Under the pieces are notes generated by a model that saw nothing but the letters and a program-made list of their open reading frames with translations, searched no databases and was not told the DNA's origin. Made by a program: the position numbers and the translations under genes. Source: Calditrichota bacterium (GTDB taxonomy: Bacteria > Calditrichota > Calditrichia > RBG-13-44-9). Taken from it: 37,109 nucleotides of DNA. Positions 7,475 through 36,059 of the stretch are shown here, piece after piece (position 1 is the stretch's first letter; the number at the start of each line of letters is the position of its first letter). The DNA lies in NCBI GenBank assembly GCA_016934605.1, contig JAFGSO010000158.1, forward strand, positions 1-37,109, in the 5' to 3' direction.

Positions 7475-7530
7475 GATAAAGGACAAAGGAGAAAGGACAA
7501 AGAAAAGACAACAAGATAACGAGACACAAG
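7475..7530. repeat. Degenerate heptanucleotide tandem array (purine-rich strand)
   Basis: Reads gataaag gacaaag gagaaag gacaaag aaaagac aacaaga taacgag acacaag. The 7-nt period is incompatible with coding. The tract aagaaaagacaacaagataac is shared with 9375-9395. Confidence 0.75.
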
Positions 7531-7611
7531 AGTGCAATAATCGAAAAACCCCGACATATTTTCTCAAAAATCATATATTAGAATTGTTTCTTGAGCGTTG
7601 TTCCTTAAGCT

Positions 7612-7960: not shown

Positions 7961-9265
7961 ATGGATAAAAATGCTCTGTTTGAAACCCTGGTCCGCTGGA
8001 ATTACTGGGGAGATAAATTATTGCCAGTGCTGGAGCAACGCAATCTGTTAACCACCATTCTCCGGAATAGTACCGGTCATTTACCGGTGGTTATCAGCGG
8101 TGCACGGCGAAGCGGTAAATCGAGTTTATTGTTATTGCTGATGAAAAATTTACTGGATTCCGGGGTGGACCGGTCACAGTTTCTCTACCTCAATTTTGAA
8201 GAGCCGCAATTTACCACCCATCTCTCACCGCTCTTCCTGGATCAACTTGTCACTATCTACCGGGAAAGAATAAATCCGGATAAAAATATATATTTTTTTC
8301 TGGATGAAATACAAAGCTTACCGGATTGGCAACGCTGGGTGCGACGGGAAGCGGATTTGAAAGAACATCGTATATTCCTCACCGGATCATCCGCCAAACT
8401 GTTGAGTGGGGAAATCGCCACCCTGCTCACCGGAAGGTATCTGGAATACCAGCTTTTTCCGCTGTCTTTTCAGGAAATTTTGAAATGGAACCGCATATCT
8501 TATCAAACAGAGGTTGACTGGACTGTCAATAAAGCCCTGATCCGCAATAAGCTGCTAGAATATCTGGAGTGGGGTGGTTTTCCGGAGACAGTTCTGACCG
8601 GCGATGAAGAAAAGCGAAAGAAATTGCTGCAGCAATACCTGAATGATATCCTGTATAGGGACATCGTCTACCGCTATCAGATTCGCGATGTACGATTACT
8701 GGAAGCAATTGCTTATTTCTATATTACCAATATTTCCGCTCCCCATTCCTATAACCGGATCAGAAATATCTTTGATACCTCCATCGACAATATCCGGCGC
8801 TATTCTGCTTATCTGGAAGAATCGTTTCTGCTGCTGATGCTGAATCGGTTTTCCTTCAAAGTCAGTATCCAGCAAAAAAGCAACCGAAAGGTATACGTTA
8901 TTGATCATGGATTACGAAACCAGTTCGGATTCAGATTTTCTCGGGATCTGGGAAAACTGGCCGAGAACATTGTAGCAGTTGCACTCTACCAGAAAGGAGA
9001 CAATTTATTTTACCATGTCAATGAGGGGGAATGCGATTTTATCGTTCAGAGAGAGCATGATTTTTCTCCCTTTCAGGTGTGCATGGGCAATCTCGAACAG
9101 GAAGATGTGCGCCGCCGTGAGCTGAAGGGATTGCTCGCTGCCATGCAGCACCTCGGTAAAACAGAGGGGACTATTTTAACTGATGATCTGGAAGAGATGT
9201 ATAAAGTTGACCATCGAACGATTCATTTCATCCCGCTCTGGAAATTTTTGATCCGGAATGAATAA
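7961..9265 (+). CDS. AAA-family ATPase of the AAA_14 + DUF4143 type
   Basis: Walker A is VISGARRSGKSS and Walker B-like is IYFFLDEIQ. The overall layout (N-terminal P-loop, middle helical region, C-terminal GECDFIVQRE block) is typical of DUF4143 ATPases. The ORF is open from 7844, but the first 39 codons are hydrophobic and low-complexity. The ATG at 7961 is preceded by GGGA, so I call that start. This is the only long plus-strand gene. Confidence 0.8.
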   Translation: MDKNALFETLVRWNYWGDKLLPVLEQRNLLTTILRNSTGHLPVVISGARRSGKSSLLLLLMKNLLDSGVDRSQFLYLNFEEPQFTTHLSPLFLDQLVTIYRERINPDKNIYFFLDEIQSLPDWQRWVRREADLKEHRIFLTGSSAKLLSGEIATLLTGRYLEYQLFPLSFQEILKWNRISYQTEVDWTVNKALIRNKLLEYLEWGGFPETVLTGDEEKRKKLLQQYLNDILYRDIVYRYQIRDVRLLEAIAYFYITNISAPHSYNRIRNIFDTSIDNIRRYSAYLEESFLLLMLNRFSFKVSIQQKSNRKVYVIDHGLRNQFGFRFSRDLGKLAENIVAVALYQKGDNLFYHVNEGECDFIVQREHDFSPFQVCMGNLEQEDVRRRELKGLLAAMQHLGKTEGTILTDDLEEMYKVDHRTIHFIPLWKFLIRNE

Positions 9266-9340
9266 CCATTTATTGAAAAAACAAGCTCCGTATGATGATC
9301 CCGGAATCATTTCTCACAGGGAAATCGTCTGATGCAGGAA

Positions 9341-9505
9341 GAAAGGCTCAAGGCACAGGGCTAAAGGACAACACAAGAAAAGACAACAAGATAACAAGCC
9401 CGTCTGGCCACCGGACAGGATACAAGATTGCAAGAGTTGCTAAATACTGCCAGATTTTCTTAAAAACCAGATTTTGGCCATTTGCCTTGATCCTTGCGCC
9501 TTGAG
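9341..9505. repeat. Intergenic inverted-arm element A: heptamer arrays flanking the 21-nt core
   Basis: Left arm: gaaaggc tcaaggc acagggc taaagga caacaca agaaaag acaacaa gataaca. Core: cccgtctggccaccggacagg at 9399-9419. Right arm: ccatttg ccttgat ccttgcg ccttgag (9478-9505). The right arm is the approximate reverse complement of ctcaaggcacagggctaaagg in the left arm. Confidence 0.7.
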
Positions 9506-9571
9506 AAATTTTGGATGATTTCATTCCGACAATTCAACATGATGTTGATATTTTTGCCGGAAAGCCTTTAT

Positions 9572-9691
9572 CATAAGAATCATCTTCCGGGTTTCGACAT
9601 ACCCTTCTGCCTCAAGACGATATAGATATACGCCGCTGGCGAGGTTGCTCGCATCCCAATCTACTGCATGTGAACCAGAAAGCAGAGAAGC
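9572..9691 (-). pseudogene. 3' remnant of a T9SS C-terminal sorting domain gene
   Basis: The minus-strand translation SLLSGSHAVDWDASNLASGVYLYRLEAEGYVETRKMILM matches the last ~40 residues of the intact cargo genes. Upstream homology is lost (in-frame stop at 9704-9706). The usual R-stop is disrupted: cttatgataaagg replaces cttatgagataa. Confidence 0.8.
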
Positions 9692-9880
9692 TGAAAGCGG
9701 TTTTTAAGTTAGCAGTTTGCACTAAAAAAGACGCCAAGATCACAAGCCCGTCTGGCCACCGGACAGGATACAAGAAGACAAGAAAATTTTTTTTATATAA
9801 ATTCTTGGTGTCTTGTAATCTTGTATCTTGTTTTCTTGTATTACCAACCGCTTTCTGCTTTCTCCTCTCTGCTTTCTCTG
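9675..9880. repeat. Intergenic inverted-arm element B: heptamer arrays flanking the 21-nt core
   Basis: Left arm: ccagaaagcagagaagctgaaagcgg (9675-9700). Core: cccgtctggccaccggacagg at 9747-9767. Inner arms: acaagaagacaagaa versus tcttggtg tcttgtaa tcttgta tcttgttt tcttgtat (9803-9841). Right arm: gctttct gctttct cctctct gctttct (9850-9877). The left arm overlaps the CTD remnant. Confidence 0.65.
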
Positions 9881-9910
9881 AGTTTAATTACCCAGAATAA
9901 TCAGAAAAGG

Positions 9911-12900
9911 CTAGTCCTGCCGGGCATAGTGCGAAGGTGATTCCCCGAACTGTTCCTGGAAGCAGCGGGAAAAGTAGGAGAGGCTGTTAAAACCCACGTC
10001 GTAAGCGATCTGGGTGACATTCCCGCTCTGTTTTCGGAGCAGGCGAGCGGCCTGTTTCAGGCGGTAAAGGCGGATAAAAGAACTGATAGAATGTCCGGTA
10101 AGAGCCTGCAGCTTGCGATAAATATTCGAGCGACTCATCCCCATCTCCCGGGCACAATCCTCTGCACTGAAATCCATATCAGAAATATTGGCGAGTAACA
10201 CTGATATTAATTTCTGCAAGAATTGGCGGTCCAGACTGGTAACGGCCAGGACATCTGCCAGGCTGTTGGGATCTGTACTGAAACGCTCCTTTAATTTGCA
10301 GCGCTGGTCAATCAAATTTTTTGTTCTTACCTTTAGCTCTTTCATATCAAAAGGCTTGGTGATGTAATCATCCGCCCCGGTTTCCAGGCCCTCCAGCTTG
10401 CTCTCGGCATCGGCCCGGGCGGTCAGCAGAATCACCGGTATATGAGAGGTTCGTTGATCCGTCTTTAATTTCTGACAAAGGGTGTATCCGTCCATCTCCG
10501 GCATCATCACATCACTGATTACGATATCTATCGGTTCTTCAATACTGCGTTCAAACCCGTCCTGGCCATTCACCGCGGTTATGATCCTATATTCATTTTC
10601 AAAATTACAGGCCATGTATTGCCGCATATCGGCATTATCTTCCACGATCAGTAATGTCGGGAGCTTTACTCCGATATCCTGAGTATTGTCTCTTAAATCA
10701 TCTGATATTTCCTGAATCTCATCAACCGGAACCACTTCTTCTGGTATCCGCTCTTCCGGTTCTGCCATTGCCTCAGGGACGATCTCTTCCGGGAGCAGGT
10801 GTTCTTTACCTAATGGTAAAAGAATTTTGAAAGTACTGCCTTTCCCGGGTTCACTCTCTACTTTGATTTCTCCGTGATGTAATTCTACCAGTTCTTTTGC
10901 CAGGGCCAGTCCGATACCGCTGCTTTGCGGATGATTACCGGCTGAGTCATCTGCCTGGTAGAAACGATCAAAGATACGGGGAAGCTGATCCGGGGAGATA
11001 CCGGGGCCGGTGTCTGAGATACTGATTTGAATATATTTTACTGACCCCCCTTTGATTCCCCCCTTATGCATACCTGTCCGGTGGCCAGACGGGAGGGGGG
11101 AAACAGGGGGGTTATATATCGTTACAACAACCTCCCCTCCTTCCGGGGTAAACTTCAGAGCATTGGAAAGCAGATTGTTGATCACCTTTTCCATCATCTC
11201 CGGATCAAGGTAAGCTTCGATATTATTATCAGGTGAAACGAATTGCAGCATTATATTCTTTCTTTCTGCCCAGGACATAAAAGCTAAAACCAGGGGTTTT
11301 AAAAAGGTGCTGATTTCAGTTGACCGGGCTTTCAGTTTCATTTTCCCGGCTTCGATTTTTGAGATGTCCAGCAATTGTTCGATAAGACCCTGCAACCGCT
11401 GGGCACTCCGCTGAATCAGACTTAACTGTTCCTGGGAGCCCCTGTCAGTTGTGTGTGATAACAGTTTATCCAGTGGCCCCTTGATCAAAGTGAGCGGTGT
11501 CCGGAACTCATGGGAGATATTGGCAAAAAATCTGGATTTGACCTGGTCAATTTCCTGTAACTTTTCCGCCCGCAGATGGTCGATTTCCGCCTGGTGTTTT
11601 AGCCGAAGGCGGTTCGTACGTACGCGCCATCCTGTGACAATTACCACGGCAAGAATACCAAAATACAGGATATAAGCCCACGGTGTATTCCACCAGGGGG
11701 TATAAACCACTATTTTCCCGGGCAAAAAATCCATTTTTGCCCCCCAGCCGGGGGAAATCTTTATCCATTTCAGGACCTGGGCCGAAAAATTGCTGGTCAG
11801 CATACGGGAATCGTACTCGCCATCGGCCAGGTATATAGTATGTTGGTGTAAGCTATCACCCTGTAATTTTGATAGTGCCAGGTGCAGGGATTTCAGGGGT
11901 TTCGATTTTTTTTGACCGGAGTTATTATCATCTCCCTCGCTACTCACATACAAATTGGCATGCACCTGTGAGAGTTGAAAATTATCTGAATTTAAAATAA
12001 ATTTGGATTTCGGGAAGGCATGTAAATCCGTAACGGTTTGAACGGTGAAAGTATCCAGCGATAAATTGATATTCGGACCTACAAATGCAAATAAATCATT
12101 ACCTATCTCAATAGAGCGATTTAAATAAATACTGCATTTTTCCTGATCCGAGAAATAAGTCTCGGTACAGTTTTCAAAATAAATGCCGCCGCCCCGCATC
12201 GCTTCATTGTGGTGAATACTTGAATTTGCACAATTTGCTGAAGCAAAATCAAAATAAATTCCACCGCCTGACTGATTTGCTGTGTTTCCTGTGATACGAT
12301 TATTCCTGAGGTCAAGTCGGGAATCCTGGCAATAAATTCCACCACCATTTTCCTCTGATATGTTGTCTAAGATAATTGAGTTAATAAGGGAGGCGTTACT
12401 CACCTCAGCGATAAAAATGCCACCCCCCATCTCCTTTGCTCTGTTTTCAGAGAAATCACAATATGAAATTTCAGTTTGGCATTCCTCCGAAACCGTTATT
12501 CCCCCGCCATATACACCAAAGTTGTTTTTAAAAGTGCTGTTGACTATCGAACCCTCACACTTTTCATTGAAATTTAATCCTCCGCCGATTTTGGCATAAT
12601 TTTCGGAAAAATAAGTATCATGAATCGTTATCTTTGATGAATAAAGAAGATTAATACCCCCACCGGCAAATGCTGAATTGCCGCTGAGCTGACAATTATT
12701 CAGATAACAAATGCTGTAATATTGGACATCAAGTGCACCCCCGGTAAATTTTGAGGCTGCATTATCTTTAAAGGTGCAATTTTCAAAGGTGACATTTGAG
12801 TACCAGATGGAAATACCTCCACCACCATATCGGAGTGCTTTGTTTTTTGTGAAGTCGCTATTCTGAATTATCGCCCGGGATTTTTCACAGATAAAAATGG

Positions 12901-13426
12901 CGCCGCCCGTATGGTGTGTCACATTATTCTGAAATGTACAATGATCAATAAGCAATTTTGTGTTGAAGCAAGCGATAGCGCCACCATATTCCCGAAAATT
13001 AACCAGGACAATTCCCCCCGGCAATGTTTCGACATATTTTATCATCTCTTTTTTGGTACTATCTATACGACCGTGAGCATACTTCATAACTGTGTGAATC
13101 ATTTTACAGTTTGAGTGCGCATTTTCGAAAATAATACCTCCCCAACCGCTTACTTGATCTTTTGCTGAAAAAACAACCGGTTCTGCAGCAGTTCCTTCTG
13201 TAATCAATAATCCTTTAACAAATATCCGGTGATGACCCAGAAATGTAATATTTACGCCAGCTTCAATCAGAAGAGCTGTTCCTTCAGGAATCTCGATATC
13301 GCCGTCAATAAGATAGGGACTACTTGTCTTTGTCCATGTACCACCCACCGTCCCTTCTTGAATAATCCCTGATTTCAGTTGCGAGGTGATACACAGAATG
13401 GAAATGAAAATTAAATAAAATTTCAC
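9911..13426 (-). CDS. Hybrid two-component sensor (HisKA, HATPase_c, REC, AraC HTH) with a parallel beta-helix periplasmic domain
   Basis: 1171-aa ORF. GTG start 10 nt after the LamG gene stop. Signal/TM segment MKFYLIFISILCITSQL. About 550 aa of GGAI/GGGI and FxxN coils. Juxtamembrane PWWNTPWAY plus a TM segment. H-box FANISHEFRTPLT, N-box NLLSNALKFTPEGG, G1 box SDTGPGI. REC domain LLIVEDNADMRQY...DIVISDVMMPEMDG. AraC HTH IAYDVGFNSLSYFSRCFQEQFGESPSHYARQD. Confidence 0.92.
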   Translation of the reverse strand: MKFYLIFISILCITSQLKSGIIQEGTVGGTWTKTSSPYLIDGDIEIPEGTALLIEAGVNITFLGHHRIFVKGLLITEGTAAEPVVFSAKDQVSGWGGIIFENAHSNCKMIHTVMKYAHGRIDSTKKEMIKYVETLPGGIVLVNFREYGGAIACFNTKLLIDHCTFQNNVTHHTGGAIFICEKSRAIIQNSDFTKNKALRYGGGGISIWYSNVTFENCTFKDNAASKFTGGALDVQYYSICYLNNCQLSGNSAFAGGGINLLYSSKITIHDTYFSENYAKIGGGLNFNEKCEGSIVNSTFKNNFGVYGGGITVSEECQTEISYCDFSENRAKEMGGGIFIAEVSNASLINSIILDNISEENGGGIYCQDSRLDLRNNRITGNTANQSGGGIYFDFASANCANSSIHHNEAMRGGGIYFENCTETYFSDQEKCSIYLNRSIEIGNDLFAFVGPNINLSLDTFTVQTVTDLHAFPKSKFILNSDNFQLSQVHANLYVSSEGDDNNSGQKKSKPLKSLHLALSKLQGDSLHQHTIYLADGEYDSRMLTSNFSAQVLKWIKISPGWGAKMDFLPGKIVVYTPWWNTPWAYILYFGILAVVIVTGWRVRTNRLRLKHQAEIDHLRAEKLQEIDQVKSRFFANISHEFRTPLTLIKGPLDKLLSHTTDRGSQEQLSLIQRSAQRLQGLIEQLLDISKIEAGKMKLKARSTEISTFLKPLVLAFMSWAERKNIMLQFVSPDNNIEAYLDPEMMEKVINNLLSNALKFTPEGGEVVVTIYNPPVSPLPSGHRTGMHKGGIKGGSVKYIQISISDTGPGISPDQLPRIFDRFYQADDSAGNHPQSSGIGLALAKELVELHHGEIKVESEPGKGSTFKILLPLGKEHLLPEEIVPEAMAEPEERIPEEVVPVDEIQEISDDLRDNTQDIGVKLPTLLIVEDNADMRQYMACNFENEYRIITAVNGQDGFERSIEEPIDIVISDVMMPEMDGYTLCQKLKTDQRTSHIPVILLTARADAESKLEGLETGADDYITKPFDMKELKVRTKNLIDQRCKLKERFSTDPNSLADVLAVTSLDRQFLQKLISVLLANISDMDFSAEDCAREMGMSRSNIYRKLQALTGHSISSFIRLYRLKQAARLLRKQSGNVTQIAYDVGFNSLSYFSRCFQEQFGESPSHYARQD
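11041..11114 (-). repeat. In-frame 74-nt palindromic element, copy in sensor 1
   Basis: ctgaccccccTTTGATTccccccttatgcataCCTGTCCGGTGGCCAGACGGGaggggggAAACAggggggtta. It encodes NPPVSPLPSGHRTGMHKGGIKGGS between the N-box and the G1 box. It matches 30169-30242 at 71 of 74 positions. Confidence 0.85.
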
Positions 13427-28981: not shown

Positions 28982-31900
28982 TTATATTTCTTTTTTAAAC
29001 ATCGCATTGCGGACATATTGAGAAGGCAACTCTCCGAATTGTTTTTGAAAACAGTGTGAAAAATACGAAAGGTTATTAAACCCGACCTCGTAAGCAATTT
29101 GAGAAATATTGCCGGAATGTTTTCTCAAAAGCCGCGCAGCCTGCTTCAGCCGGTATAACCGAACAAAAGAACTGACTGAATGTCCGGTAAGTGCATGAAG
29201 TTTCCGGTAAAATTGTGACCGGCTCATTCCTACACTTTTTGAGAATTCTTCAGCACTGAATGCAGGATCGTCCAGGTGCTCCTGCAAACAATTGACGACT
29301 TTCTTCAGGAATTGTCGATCCAGGCTGGAAATAGCCAGGACACCAGGCAAACTTTCCGGATCCCTGTCGAATTTATCTTTCAGCTTTCTGCGGTGCATTA
29401 TAAGGTTTTTAACCCGAACCTGCAGCTCTTTTACCTCAAAAGGTTTGGAAATGTAATCATCTGCTCCCAGTTCCAGCCCCTCCAGCTTGCTCTCCATATC
29501 TGCTTTGGCTGTTAAAAGGATTACCGGAATGTGTGAGGTCCTCTGGTCGGATTTCAACTTTTTGCAGAAGTCAAAACCGTCCATCACCGGCATCATGACA
29601 TCGCTGATAATTAAATCCATGTTGCCTTTAATGGCTTTCTCAAAACCCTCTTTGCCATCTAATGCGGTAATAATCCGGTAGTCCTCCTCCAGATAGTCTT
29701 TGATATATTTCTGCATGTCGGTATTGTCTTCTACGATCAGCACACCCGGTAGCTTTTTATCTTCATCTTGCTCTGAATTTCCTGAACGAGCAGTGTCAAC
29801 CGATACACGATCTCTCTCTTCTGAACGAACGGCAGACACAGTTTCTTCTGCTTTTACATCCACCGTCTGTTTTCCAGGGATCTTCTTTTCCCGTATTTCT
29901 TGATCTGCTATCTCTTCTCCCTTCAAATGCTCTTTTCCCAACGGTAATTGTATAGTGAACACAGATCCCTGTCCAACCTCACTCTGTACATCAATGGTCC
30001 CATGATGCAGCTCCACCAGCTCCTTGGTGAGAGCCAATCCGATGCCGGTACCTTCATGAATCCGGGAAATTGAGTCATCTGTCTGATAAAAGCGATCGAA
30101 GATGCGGTTTAGCTTATCAGGTGAGATGCCTGGCCCGGTGTCGGAGACGCGGATCACAATTTTTTTACCTGACCCCCCTTTATTTCCCCCCTTATGCATA
30201 CCTGTCCGGTGGCCAGACGGGAGGGGGGACACAGGGGGGTTAAAAACTGACACTTCAATCCGTCCTCCGGAAGGCGTAAATTTCAGCGCATTGGAAAGCA
30301 GATTGTTTACCACTTTTTCCATCATTTCAGGATCCACATAGACCCTTACAGGATCTGATGGGGGGATGAATTTCAGCTCAATCTTCTTACTTTCCGCCCA
30401 TGAAGTAAAGTTGTAAACCAGAGGTTTCAGAAATTCACTCAATTCTAATTCCTGTGCCTGAAGCTTCATTTTCCCGGCTTCCAGTTTTGACAGATCGAGG
30501 AGCTGGTCGATCAGTCGATGCAATCGATAGGCACTCCGCTGCATGACATTCAGGTTTTCCCTGGACTTTTCGTCGGTTGTCCAGGACAGCATTTTTTCCA
30601 ATGGTCCCAGCAGCAGGGTCAGTGGTGTCCTGAATTCATGGGAAATATTGGCAAAGAAGCGGGATTTGGCCCGGTCAATTTCCTGCAGCTTTTCTGCCTG
30701 CAGATGCTTAATCTCAAGCTGATGTTTCATACGCAGACGCCTGAGCTGTGCACGCCAGGTGACCGCAATCGTCAGGCCAATTAATAAAATATAAACTGTA
30801 TAAGCCCAGCTTGTCTGCCACCAGGGTGGCAGAATTATCACTTTGATGGAAGTCCCTTCCTCGTTCCAGACACCATCATTATTGGAGCCTTTCACTTTGA
30901 ATACATATTCACCCGGATCCAGATTGGTATAGGTTGCCTGACGGTTAAAAGCATCTGTATATACCCAGTTGGGATCAATGCCCTCCATTTTGTACATATA
31001 TATGTTTTTGTTTGGTTTTATATAATTCAAAGCTGAAAATTCCAATGAAAATATATTTTGATTATGATGCAGAGTGATTTCATCTGCGAAGGTGATTGAT
31101 TTTTTCAATGGGGAATTTTCACCGGGTTGTACTGATTTATGAAATAATTGAAAATCGGTCAGATATACCGGTGGTTTGATTTTATTATACCTGAAACTGT
31201 CCGGGTGAAAAATACAGAAACCATTATATGATCCAAAAATTAATTCTCCAGAATGGGTTTTGCATGAAGATGTCCATACAAATTCATTACTGGGTAAACC
31301 ATCTTCAGTGGTTAGAGTCAAAAAGGTTTCCCCTTTTGGATCAAACCTGCAAATTCCTCTGGTTGTCCCCAGCCACAAATTACCGTCATTATCCTCCTGA
31401 ATACTGACAATTATTTCATCAGGCAAACCGTCCTGTTTGTGATATCTTACAAAACTATTATCTTTTTCCAGATATTTGTTCAACCCTACTCTGGTACCGA
31501 TCCATAGAGTTCCTGAGTTATCCCGATATATAATTTTTATTGCATTATTGCTGATACTCTTTGGATTATTTTGCTGATGTTGAAAGTATTTTATTTTTTT
31601 TGAAGAGAGATTAATTTGGTTTAATCCGCCATATTCCGTCCCAACCCAGATCATTGGAATGGAATCTTTGACCTCGGAAAAGACGTAAGTTATGTAATTA
31701 TCACTAATTGAATGAGGACTATTGGGTGAATTTAAATAGGGCGTAGCTTTTCCAGTATTAAGGTTATATTCATACAATCCTGACCCTGCAGATCCCAACC
31801 ATAGAATCTTATCTTTATTTATTGGATCATTTGCCATCCATTGCAGCATTGACAGGGGGTATTTTCTTGAAAACCTTTCTTCACCTGTTTCAAAATAATC

Positions 31901-33235
31901 TAGCCCCGAGGTAGTACAGACAAATAAATTATTTAATGAATCTTCACAGACAGTTGCTACCTCATTTGTCAGTATTGTTTCAGGGTCACCGGGGTCATGG
32001 GTATAATGGGAAAATTTCTGTGTACTTCTATCAAATTTATTCAGACCTCCCGTAAAAGTTGATATCCATAATGTCCCTTTTGAGTCTTCATAAATAGTTG
32101 TTACACTGTTATTATTAAGACTATTACTGTTCTGCTCATTTTGATGCACCTTTATCTTTTTTCTCGGTTCATAGGCTTTTACCAGGCCCTCACCGGTACC
32201 TCCAATCCATATAATTTCATAAGTATCGTCAAAAATAAGGCTTATTACATTTTTTTGTATTTCATTTTCATATCTGTAGAATTCTTCTGATTCTCTGTCA
32301 AATATGTTGATTCCATGTCCATATAACCCGATGATCCAGTTTCCATTATTATCGATCTTAATATCCGATACCCAATTCCCGCCAATTGATTTAGTATCAT
32401 TATCATGATGATAATATCTTTTTAATTCGACAATATTCTCTCTTTCGCGGTCCAGTACAACCTTGGTGAGTCCTTCCGCAGTTGCCAGCCATAAATGACT
32501 ATCATCATCTTCTGTTATAGCTGATATAAAACTAAATCCAAGACTATTCTCATCTTTTTTGTTAATATGAAATGACTTGAAATCATTTTTCTTATAATCA
32601 AACCTGGTAAGAGAAGAACTCCAACCCATCCAAAGTAAGCCGGATTTATCTTCATATATGGAATATACCTGACCATTTCTTATGGCTGAATTTTTTGATG
32701 AGTTTTTATTTTTACTGTATTTTAGAAATGTGGATGAATCTTCTTTTAGTAAATTTAAACCATTATCAAATGTCCCAATCCAAAGATTATCTGGCCTATC
32801 TCTATAGACAAATGTTATAAAATTGTCGCTGATACTCTTGGTATCCTGAGGATCGTGCTTATATTGAGTGAAACTCTCTGTTTCCATATCAAATTTATTT
32901 AACCCATTACAAGTGCTTATCCATAAAATCTTACCGGGATATTTCGGGTCTTCATAAATTCTTTGTATTAATGCATCACTAATACTGTTGGGATTATCAG
33001 GATCCGGATGATACACTTTATAAGTGTAACCATCATATCGCATAAGCCCGTAGGGTCCACCAATCCAGATAAATCCATTACTGTCTTTTAGGGTACACAA
33101 GACATGATTAGGAGAATATTCCCCCACATTTTGGATTTTTTCAAAAATCAAATCGTAGGGTTGACTGAATAAAAATTTTGAAATGGATAAAATGAGAAAG
33201 AATACGCAAATACTTATTTGATTCTTCCGAATCAT
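28982..33235 (-). CDS. Hybrid two-component sensor of the classical HTCS layout (propeller repeats, Y_Y_Y, TM, HisKA, HATPase_c, REC, AraC HTH)
   Basis: The ORF is open to 33250 (TTG). I prefer the ATG at 33235 (MIRKNQISICVFFLILSISKFLFSQ). Many LW(I/L)GT..GL..(F/Y)D propeller motifs. YMYKMEGIDPNWVYT...GEYVFKVKGSNNDGVWN (Y_Y_Y). PPWWQTSWAY plus a TM segment. FANISHEFRTPLT, NLLSNALKFTPSGG, SDTGPGI. REC domain VLIVEDNTDMQKY...DLIISDVMMPVMDG. AraC HTH IAYEVGFNNLSYFSHCFQKQFGELPSQY. Confidence 0.92.
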   Translation of the reverse strand: MIRKNQISICVFFLILSISKFLFSQPYDLIFEKIQNVGEYSPNHVLCTLKDSNGFIWIGGPYGLMRYDGYTYKVYHPDPDNPNSISDALIQRIYEDPKYPGKILWISTCNGLNKFDMETESFTQYKHDPQDTKSISDNFITFVYRDRPDNLWIGTFDNGLNLLKEDSSTFLKYSKNKNSSKNSAIRNGQVYSIYEDKSGLLWMGWSSSLTRFDYKKNDFKSFHINKKDENSLGFSFISAITEDDDSHLWLATAEGLTKVVLDRERENIVELKRYYHHDNDTKSIGGNWVSDIKIDNNGNWIIGLYGHGINIFDRESEEFYRYENEIQKNVISLIFDDTYEIIWIGGTGEGLVKAYEPRKKIKVHQNEQNSNSLNNNSVTTIYEDSKGTLWISTFTGGLNKFDRSTQKFSHYTHDPGDPETILTNEVATVCEDSLNNLFVCTTSGLDYFETGEERFSRKYPLSMLQWMANDPINKDKILWLGSAGSGLYEYNLNTGKATPYLNSPNSPHSISDNYITYVFSEVKDSIPMIWVGTEYGGLNQINLSSKKIKYFQHQQNNPKSISNNAIKIIYRDNSGTLWIGTRVGLNKYLEKDNSFVRYHKQDGLPDEIIVSIQEDNDGNLWLGTTRGICRFDPKGETFLTLTTEDGLPSNEFVWTSSCKTHSGELIFGSYNGFCIFHPDSFRYNKIKPPVYLTDFQLFHKSVQPGENSPLKKSITFADEITLHHNQNIFSLEFSALNYIKPNKNIYMYKMEGIDPNWVYTDAFNRQATYTNLDPGEYVFKVKGSNNDGVWNEEGTSIKVIILPPWWQTSWAYTVYILLIGLTIAVTWRAQLRRLRMKHQLEIKHLQAEKLQEIDRAKSRFFANISHEFRTPLTLLLGPLEKMLSWTTDEKSRENLNVMQRSAYRLHRLIDQLLDLSKLEAGKMKLQAQELELSEFLKPLVYNFTSWAESKKIELKFIPPSDPVRVYVDPEMMEKVVNNLLSNALKFTPSGGRIEVSVFNPPVSPLPSGHRTGMHKGGNKGGSGKKIVIRVSDTGPGISPDKLNRIFDRFYQTDDSISRIHEGTGIGLALTKELVELHHGTIDVQSEVGQGSVFTIQLPLGKEHLKGEEIADQEIREKKIPGKQTVDVKAEETVSAVRSEERDRVSVDTARSGNSEQDEDKKLPGVLIVEDNTDMQKYIKDYLEEDYRIITALDGKEGFEKAIKGNMDLIISDVMMPVMDGFDFCKKLKSDQRTSHIPVILLTAKADMESKLEGLELGADDYISKPFEVKELQVRVKNLIMHRRKLKDKFDRDPESLPGVLAISSLDRQFLKKVVNCLQEHLDDPAFSAEEFSKSVGMSRSQFYRKLHALTGHSVSSFVRLYRLKQAARLLRKHSGNISQIAYEVGFNNLSYFSHCFQKQFGELPSQYVRNAMFKKEI
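30169..30242 (-). repeat. In-frame 74-nt palindromic element, copy in sensor 2
   Basis: ctgaccccccTTTATTTccccccttatgcataCCTGTCCGGTGGCCAGACGGGaggggggACACAggggggtta. It encodes NPPVSPLPSGHRTGMHKGGNKGGS at the same domain position as the copy at 11041-11114. Confidence 0.85.
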
Positions 33236-33570
33236 TGTTCGTTCAGACAATATTTGTTTTAGATGAATTTACAAATTTAACAGAGAATTTACAAGAAAAT
33301 GTAGTGCATAAATGAAAAAAATCATCATATAAATTTCACTTTTATGATGATGATCATAGAAGAAAGAATTTATAAACACAGACATTATCTTTAAAGAAAT
33401 CCGAAACGCCTGCTAAAATACATATCAGGATAATTTCACCGAAATTTTGTAAACGGAGGGCAATTTACCGCAGTAGATGATAAATTTTACGAAATTATGT
33501 GATTTTTTTAAGAAAGAGTAGGCTCTTATCAGAGTCAGCTTTCTGTTTGAAACCCCATCAACACCCTCTA

Positions 33571-35874: not shown

Positions 35875-36059
35875 GGGGTTGTATCAAAAGTCAAAATATG
35901 TGTATAAATATGAATATCGCCTTTCAGAATGCACTTATTAACTCACCCCCAACCCCCTCTCTTGACAAGAGAGGGGGCGAAGGGGGTGAGTTCATTTAAA
36001 TCACGATTATAAATAATAATGTATATATTTCCATTAAATTGGACTTTTGATACAGCCCC
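35875..36059. repeat. MITE-like 185-nt element: 18-nt terminal inverted repeats enclosing a 53-nt C-run/G-run palindrome
   Basis: The terminal repeats are ggggttgtatcaaaagtc (35875-35892) and gacttttgatacagcccc (36042-36059), complementary at 17 of 18 positions. The central palindrome is aactcaccccc aa ccccctctctt gac aagagaggggg cgaa gggggtgagtt (35940-35992). AT-rich segments lie between the palindrome and the terminal repeats. Confidence 0.7.

Follow-up and report, generated by a model that had tools for sequence, protein, structure and literature searches.

The 37,109-nucleotide stretch analysed here, contig JAFGSO010000158.1 of the Calditrichota bacterium assembly GCA_016934605.1 (the window), encodes two hybrid kinases which carry a 74-nt palindromic tract, in frame, within their HATPase_c domains. 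The two genes have the same orientation and lie about 19 kb apart, and the second is annotated as a protein of 1215 aa in the public record (P0121). Homology between kinase 1 and kinase 2 is confined to the C-terminal 600 residues (62.5% amino-acid identity). Only the transmembrane-to-C-terminal module is common to both, beginning at residue 571 in kinase 1 and at residue 803 in kinase 2, and the N-terminus of kinase 1 consists of Chlamydia-PMP-repeats in place of a Reg_prop/Y_Y_Y sensor, a difference which suggests sensor-domain swapping within the family. Both HATPase_c domains are recognised by Pfam PF02518 (E = 8e-27 and 1.5e-27), with 133 residues covering the 111-position profile, and the defining marks of this domain are present, namely its N and G1 boxes, a Bergerat fold and a match to DHp-CA structures. 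The insert, translated as NPPVSPLPSGHRTGMHKGG(I/N)KGGS, follows the N box (NLLSNALKFTP.GG) and precedes the G1 box (SDTGPGI) in both proteins, and despite its presence the open reading frames (ORFs) are uninterrupted and all kinase motifs are intact.

The original prediction, made from the letters of the window, was that the two segments differ at only three of 74 positions while the paralogous sequence around them is far more diverged, and this was borne out. The three mismatches fall at + strand positions 11054, 11055 and 11102, whereas the alignable C-terminal 600 codons are 64.4% identical at the nucleotide level (codon alignment) and the 20-base windows flanking the tract show 55-80% identity; the probability of three or fewer mismatches in 74 at 0.356 per site is 8.5e-11. 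Synonymous divergence collapses inside the tract only, as third-codon-position identity among identical residues is 0.95-1.0 in the windows covering the insert versus 0.535 overall, and the boundaries of the identity island coincide with the palindrome ends on both sides. An apparent second island of synonymous identity, at residues 561-600 of kinase 1, was dropped as being due to Trp codons and small counts.

On the + strand the tract is laid out as C6-N7-C6 ... G6-N5-G6 flanking the core CCTGTCCGGTGGCCAGACGGG, which is the imperfect palindrome that had been foreseen, with a 21-nt core that also exists in non-coding DNA (at 9399 and 9747). In the coding orientation it reads TAA-CCCCCC-TGT(T/G)T-CCCCCC-T, followed by CCCGTCTGGCCACCGGACAGG and then by TATGCATAA-GGGGGG-AA(TC/AT)AAA-GGGGGG-TCAG. 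The view of the 74-mer as one element held as far as the palindromic insert is concerned, but the tract combines two separate dispersed families, a 21-nt hairpin nested in a 53-nt C6/G6 palindrome. The latter (TAA-C6-TGTKT-C6-TTATGCATAA-G6-spacer-G6-TCAG) lies in the codons of the beta-hairpin turn between the N box and the G1 box. The 21-mer is located exactly between CCCCCCT and TATGCATA, where it interrupts an otherwise perfect 22-nt palindrome; taking it out of the sequence gives CCCCCCTTATGCATAAGGGGGG, at the centre of the 53-nt palindrome. Taken by itself, the 21-mer forms the imperfect hairpin CCCGTCTGG-CCA-CCGGACAGG, with a G/C-rich stem of nine pairs that includes one wobble pair and one C-A mismatch, and a 3-nt CCA loop. 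The mRNA segment folds strongly, with -43.5 kcal/mol (z = -4.2 to -4.5) in kinase 1 and -42.5 kcal/mol (z = -3.2) in kinase 2, while the 21-mer folded alone gives -8.8 kcal/mol (z = -1.4). That the 21-mer is stop-free in all six frames carries no significance, 60% of shuffles being equally stop-free. The 74-nt tract is very probably non-kinase DNA, composed of two nested small palindromic repeats that stand in frame in the gene, and every check that was run of a palindromic repeat inserted in frame came out in favour of it. The coordinates are collected in Table 1.

Table 1. Kinase genes, parts of the composite insert and related repeat copies in the window.
Feature	Position	Strand	Remarks
Hybrid kinase 1, host gene of insert	9911..13426	-	PMP-repeat N-terminus, HisKA, HATPase_c, receiver, AraC HTH; 1171 aa
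Hybrid kinase 2, host gene of insert	28982..33250	-	Reg_prop/Y_Y_Y sensor, HisKA, HATPase_c, receiver (Response_reg), AraC HTH; 1422 aa
Composite 74-nt palindromic insert, kinase 1	11041..11114	-	codes residues 772-795, NPPVSPLPSGHRTGMHKGGIKGGS
Host palindrome, kinase 1, 5' half (coding orientation)	11094..11114	-	TAACCCCCCTGTTTCCCCCCT; left arm common to at least 119 public loci
Nested 21-nt hairpin element, kinase 1	11073..11093	-	CCCGTCTGGCCACCGGACAGG, codes PSGHRTG; exactly missing in L169 and L291
Host palindrome, kinase 1, 3' half	11041..11072	-	TATGCATAAGGGGGGAATCAAAGGGGGGTCAG
Composite 74-nt palindromic insert, kinase 2	30169..30242	-	codes residues 1004-1027, NPPVSPLPSGHRTGMHKGGNKGGS
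Host palindrome halves, kinase 2	30222-30242 and 30169-30200	-	
Nested 21-nt hairpin element, kinase 2	30201..30221	-	
Non-coding 21-mer copy	9399..9419	+	inside CAAGA-rich repeat, between two convergent genes
Second non-coding 21-mer copy	9747..9767	+	same kind of CAAGA-rich repeat
Approximate empty match, 9399 copy with flanks joined	7508..7539	+	CAAGA-rich repeat without 21-mer
Approximate empty match, inverted, same CAAGA-rich repeat	9811..9842	-	inverted repeat with 9415-9435

Filled and empty sites were found in related kinases. A scan of 185,579 representative genomes with the pattern CCCCCCT-N(0-30)-TATGCATAAGGGGGG returned a single locus, L169, from an uncultured Caldithrix assembly, in which a hybrid kinase of 1395 aa carries the palindrome at the same codon and without the 21-mer (AACCCCCCTGTGTCCCCCCT/TATGCATAAGGGGGGAAATGAAGGGAGGTCAGG, with TATGCATAAGGGGGG... 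after the junction), coding for ...IVIH-NPPVSPLMHKGGNEGRS-GEYIEISVSDTGQGI. When 1.84 billion representative proteins were searched without a profile, the query being the N-box-to-G1 stretch of kinase 2, the insert was detected in only three further kinases, namely P0121 (kinase 2 itself), P0122 (locus L290, CP070707.1), where palindrome and 21-mer are present and both decayed, and P0124 (locus L291), where the palindrome is present and the 21-mer absent. No target duplication is seen at the junctions of L169 and L291, and the boundaries in L169 are unambiguous, no shift being possible. The insert thus occupies an identical codon in five kinases that share 47-64% protein identity over the C-terminal region, and no conserved target sequence flanks it across the five. 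With the codon shared by kinases so deeply diverged, one ancestral insertion of the palindrome, not two, is most likely. Recent, site-specific and independent insertions of the composite element into each kinase appear very unlikely given the shared codon, the lack of a conserved flanking target and the fact that the TTATGCATAA-centred subtype is found nowhere else in the representative genomes, even though both families are dispersed, the composite copies are nearly identical and the same loop is occupied by many different repeat families in homologous kinases.

The 21-mer is found in kinase 1, kinase 2 and P0122, and is absent from the L169 protein (L169p), the sister of P0122 in the kinase tree, as well as from P0124. 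This distribution does not follow the tree, and therefore calls for conversion, for precise loss or for more than one gain at that spot. A short tract of gene conversion linking the paralogous kinases of the window could in principle also account for the identity island itself, with no repeat-element biology involved. The two genes reside in one genome on the same strand, the 21-mer is identical and identically placed in both, a high-identity island within 64%-identical DNA would confine the tract to itself, and conversion among paralogues would account for a 21-mer that is not monophyletic on the kinase tree. However, the palindrome of kinase 2 is as near to those of L169 (50 of 52 positions) and L291 (49 of 52) as to that of kinase 1 (49 of 52), so that conversion between the two window genes alone is insufficient. 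It would likewise not predict the clustering of differences in spacers described below, the tract stops exactly at the palindrome ends, and many copies of both components exist elsewhere. As a full explanation, conversion between the two kinases is accordingly improbable.

Over the 52 nt compared, the palindromes of kinase 1, kinase 2, L169 and L291 have 90-96% of their positions in common, whereas the 300 nt on each side of it are only 53-68% identical in the same four kinases; the copy in L290 shows 77-83% identity to the other four. A supposedly neutral palindrome has in other words remained 90-96% identical while its host genes have diverged to about 55-60% nucleotide identity, which is a puzzle. 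The 12 spacer bases left unpaired take most of the substitutions (4 of 5, P = 0.011; 5 of 8, P = 0.019), and this suggests a constraint on the paired positions. One explanation is that purifying selection maintains the palindrome, alone or together with the 21-mer, as a functional nucleic-acid element, such as an mRNA hairpin for translation pacing or message stability or a protein-binding DNA site. The near-identity of the copies across four genes of three or more assemblies, the spacer-biased substitutions, the stable fold and an arm sequence conserved across phyla would all fit such a role. On the other hand, the L290 copy and a related copy in L289 have decayed while their genes remain open across the insert, most homologous kinases either lack an insert or carry one that is unrelated, the same families occur in unrelated genes and between genes, and the 21-mer can be missing from an otherwise identical palindrome. 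Nor was there any Rfam match in the whole window at gathering thresholds, and in the region 9200-11300, with E up to 1, only chance miRNA and snoRNA matches appeared. A selected function is rather unlikely. Constraint at the nucleotide level, which had been raised as an alternative from the start, may nonetheless underlie the spacer pattern, and the decay of the L290 and L289 copies speaks against a function for the host. In L289 a TAG stands in frame in the conserved PPWW motif (cccccctagtgg), at about 2890-2900, and splits the coding sequence of the hybrid kinase (P0007), which is consequently annotated as a pair of genes, 813 and 548 aa long; this represents either a pseudogene or a sequencing error.

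Further coding and non-coding copies had been anticipated and were found for both components. The left arm of the palindrome, AACCCCCCTGTNTCCCCCC, occurs at no fewer than 119 loci in the genome scan, in many phyla and both between and inside genes. The family consensus is AACCCCCCTGTNTCCCCCCTT-loop-AAGGGGGGA..., and the usual form is ...CCCCCCTT-loop-AAGGGGGGA-nnn-AAGGGGGGTT. The loci span Ignavibacteria, Nitrospirota, Nitrospinota, Planctomycetota, Binatia, candidate phyla and one Scytonema genome, with several copies per assembled genome and at least 15 in one assembly. Among the matches listed, 38 of 124 copies lie within ORFs 200 aa or more in length, in either orientation, although some of the ORFs around copies in G+C-rich contigs may be spurious. 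In six Ignavibacteria loci (L171, L179, L193, L199, L201 and L242) the C6/G6 palindrome stands in frame in the first beta-hairpin turn of C-terminal sorting domains of the type IX secretion system (T9SS), in the context ..NPFNPSTTIKYSI[..NPPSSPLSERGETGGL]VSLKVYD.., and this turn is a second recurrent permissive site. Other intragenic copies occupy a turn of a second domain.

The 21-mer is a dispersed unit in its own right. The window contains four copies, compared to none expected in shuffles, the two non-coding ones being situated in the intergenic region 9266-9910 in reverse orientation to those in the kinases. The approximate empty matches in Table 1 come from a search of the window with a 32-mer, allowing up to four mismatches, in low-complexity sequence. 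Elsewhere the 21-mer was found at 88 loci in several phyla, 26 in the genome collection and 62 in the metagenome collection, where the chance expectation for the genome collection is about 0.03-3 matches depending on G+C; viral contigs contained no copy. It is present on at least two contigs each in assemblies labelled Calditrichota, Saprospiraceae and Sedimentisphaerales. The flanks vary between genomes, and the unit is embedded precisely in various unrelated host repeats, such as gtcattctgagc..gcg-X-aagaatc and gagattgct-X-tcgtc...ctcgcaatgac (X denoting the 21-mer), or accctaaccc...ccttcccctgccggcaggggaaggg, in which the insertion is at the tip or in the left arm and L052 is filled at both. 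Filled and empty pairs differing by the exact 21-nt unit are represented by L051 and L052, with the 21-mer, and L041 and L048, without it, and on one Caldithrix contig (L010) two copies of a repeat of about 110 nt differ by exactly 21 nt. Long ORFs contain the 21-mer as well, in several frames and in either orientation; in an esterase-like ORF of Sedimentisphaerales (L011) the PDB matches fall outside the region of the copy. Identical sequences recur across independent assemblies of different projects (L020 = L029 = L055, L004 = L068, L010 = L054). Within 1.6 Mb there are just 16 variant sequences, most of them altered in the loop, where A to G is the commonest change. Heptamer periodicity around the 21-mer gave no general signal and was seen in a few contexts only, no recurrent gene near the 21-mer, apart from common families such as kinases, emerged when the 621 ORFs of the 88 loci were clustered all against all, and a string search of the literature library for the 21-mer and the arm sequences retrieved no paper containing them. 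Head-to-tail tandem arrays of the 21-nt unit, five units long in L071 (809-871) and present also in L004/L068, include the variants TCCGTCTGGCCGCCGGACAGG and ..CCGGCCAGG.

The position of the insert is itself a permissive one. The distance from N box to G1 box was measured in 118 protein matches from the best 120 listed for a query of 330 aa; all of these are shorter than 580 aa and do not include kinase 2, L169p or P0122, so that full-length relatives are under-represented. Its mode is 38 residues (26 proteins, with nine more at 39) versus 60 residues in both window kinases, and the segment is accordingly absent from most homologues. More than half of the 118 proteins have other extra residues at this same turn. 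Many of these loop inserts resemble translated repeats (PPLxKGG.., AELVSAS..KIPKQVRDDN, IASLHSFARNDN, SQQFAVGSQQ, NPKSKIQNPKS), and in the DNA of 80 further homologues many of the long ones are palindromic; in a rough tree the insert types are interspersed among insert-free kinases. Neither a universal presence of the segment with ordinary divergence nor a long identity tract lacking other copies, either of which would have spoken against an inserted repeat, was observed. An AlphaFold2 model of residues 571-900 of kinase 1, with an overall predicted local distance difference test score (pLDDT) of 90, matches HK853, WalK and similar DHp-CA structures in Foldseek. It places strands at model residues 195-201 and 228-235 and the insert between them as coil with a pLDDT of about 51, in agreement with the predicted surface-loop position; as modelled, a surface hairpin of the catalytic domain is extended by the 24 encoded residues as a loop of low confidence. 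That the segment is an ordinary conserved protein loop acting at the peptide level, or else an assembly artefact, is hardly credible. It is in frame, G/P-rich and present in both paralogues, as such a loop would be, but its synonymous sites are conserved too, its DNA is palindromic, it is unstructured in the model and missing from most homologues, and the same sequences were recovered in the independent assemblies noted above.

The turn of the N-G1 beta-hairpin in HATPase_c has collected many repeat families in Ignavibacteria, Calditrichota and Bacteroidota, and represents a protein position tolerating 15-60 additional residues; to annotators, such loop insertions signify repeat DNA rather than domain features. 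Two further kinase loci, L092 and L103, carry other 21-nt hairpin units, CCAGCCTGTCGGCAAGGCAGG and CCCGCCTGCCGGTCGGGCAGG, at the tips of MLKQ...VQHD-type palindromes, once more in the N-to-G1 loop of hybrid kinases; units of 21 nt with a terminal CAGG may thus form a wider family. A separate C5/G5 palindrome family is represented in the window by an intergenic copy at 35937-35995 (ctcacccccaaccccctctct...agagggggcgaagggggtgag), nested in a larger 37-nt inverted repeat (35875-35911 / 36023-36059), and is found in translated form (..GEG.GVR..) in the kinase loop of the homologues P0002 and L131.

On the reading of the tract as two nested repeats, the palindrome would have been acquired by a single ancestor of a hybrid-kinase subfamily of Calditrichota type and passed on by descent. 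The 21-mer may be a later addition; alternatively, some copies may have shed it precisely or received it through conversion. The insert would be tolerated as its G/P-rich peptide is presumably harmless in a hairpin turn. The 21-mer is probably moved in trans by machinery recognising an imperfect hairpin in single-stranded nucleic acid, and the palindrome may be kept near its consensus by constraint on the paired positions, by homogenisation among copies, or by both. A more far-reaching proposal, put forward tentatively, is that the 21-mer is a mobile element of minimal size which spreads, or is cut out precisely, as an exact unit, without target duplication or linked gene and identical across at least three phyla. 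A widely conserved machinery specific for single strands or hairpins would then recognise both the 21-mer and the palindromes that host it, and would keep the kinase copies 90-96% identical while the surrounding genes diverge to saturation. If true, this would extend the 'smallest mobile elements' of cyanobacteria to much of the bacterial domain, and would provide defined filled and empty substrates for finding the responsible enzyme.

Several observations weigh against the reading as nested repeats. The conflict between the presence of the 21-mer and the kinase tree implies more than one event, or conversion, and a neutral passenger should diverge like its flanks, which the palindrome has not done. 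The TTATGCATAA-centred subtype is known only from kinases, at one codon position, and was found once among the 185,579 representative genomes; being so restricted, it gives no sign of present-day dispersal. Variants of the 21-mer are so scarce that covariation supports its hairpin weakly. No mobilising enzyme or recurrent neighbour is seen near the copies at the 88 loci, so that mobility of the 21-mer is deduced from presence/absence patterns only, and precise excision would yield the same pattern. In addition, the taxonomic labels derive from binned metagenome assemblies, in which mis-binned contigs are possible.

In-frame palindromic repeats, as in the Rickettsia palindromic elements (RPEs) and the intragenic repetitive extragenic palindromes (REPs), and mobile repeats of 21-27 nt, the small dispersed repeats (SDRs), have each been described in few lineages. 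SDR1-8 of Nostocaceae were reportedly presented by Elhai et al. in 2008 as dispersed hairpin-forming units of 21-27 nt, said to reside inside other repeats, among tandem short repeats and nested, and proposed as the smallest mobile elements. The 21-mer resembles them, as it is likewise dispersed, often nested in repeats, present or absent as an exact unit and without an associated gene. The secondary structure of SDRs is reportedly backed by compensatory changes, and the few variants of the 21-mer vary mostly in the loop. Compared by description and not by SDR sequence, it differs in its occurrence in assemblies of Calditrichota, Saprospiraceae and Sedimentisphaerales, also in frame in proteins, and in its association with heptamer repeats in a few contexts only. 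Its hosts thereby depart from the confinement of SDRs to heterocyst-forming cyanobacteria, none having been found outside Nostocaceae (PMC5861425).

RPEs, palindromic repeats of about 105-146 bp in Rickettsia (PMC3184786), had been named as the closest precedent. The likeness is in the phenomenon, since in both cases palindromic repeats stand in frame in intact-looking genes and add a surface peptide, with further copies between genes (PMC3733652, PMC3184786). It is an analogy and not the family, as the present elements measure 53 nt and 21 nt, are nested, and occur in Calditrichota-type and other environmental bacteria; length and hosts set them apart from RPEs as these are described, consensus sequences not entering the comparison. 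RPE-4 and RPE-6 are themselves CGTC-tagged REPs (PMC3733652). Tagged REPs are short imperfect palindromes, dispersed, sometimes intragenic (20-30 residues) and in some cases found regularly in small palindromes, and the CGTC REPs have no dedicated transposase (PMC3733652). The elements described here are similarly short, dispersed, intragenic and nested, with apparently no dedicated transposase, and the 21-mer has CGTC at positions 3-6. CGTC-tagged REPs are, however, defined by an unpaired CGTC at one end, a stem of 8-9 bp starting with A/T, a loop of 4-5 nt and a CCA tail (PMC3733652), whereas in the 21-mer the CGTC is inside a G/C-rich stem, the loop has 3 nt and a tail is absent.

In the REPIN/RAYT system, hairpin repeat units are thought to be moved in trans, without target duplication, by a single-strand-specific tyrosine transposase (PMC3116915). 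The 21-mer shares the hairpin and the lack of target duplication, but has no GTAG and is a single unit, not an inverted doublet, and no RAYT-like gene or recurrent transposase-like ORF is present among the 88 loci. It also differs from miniature transposable elements of the inverted-repeat type (MITEs), which have terminal inverted repeats and target-site duplications, as the junctions in L169, L291 and L010 are without duplication. The elements match RPEs, intragenic REPs and SDRs in phenomenon, and are by definition none of them; they belong to a known kind of selfish DNA, previously undescribed in these phyla. The window offers a clean case of it in poorly studied phyla, with nested elements, exact boundaries, and filled and empty sites both in kinases and in intergenic repeats.

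Other repeats are also found in the window. Between the two non-coding 21-mer copies lies an intergenic fragment of 134 nt (9565-9698), 73% identical to the 3' ends of T9SS-tailed genes (family D4); it probably represents the pseudogenised remainder of a C-terminal sorting domain. It is flanked by period-7 arrays, CAGAAAG and GCTTTCT, at 9676-9698 and 9850-9877. Positions 594-1552, within the ORF at 230-1624, consist of six to seven tandem copies of a coding repeat of 138-156 nt (families D5-D9), two adjacent copies of which are 92-95% identical.

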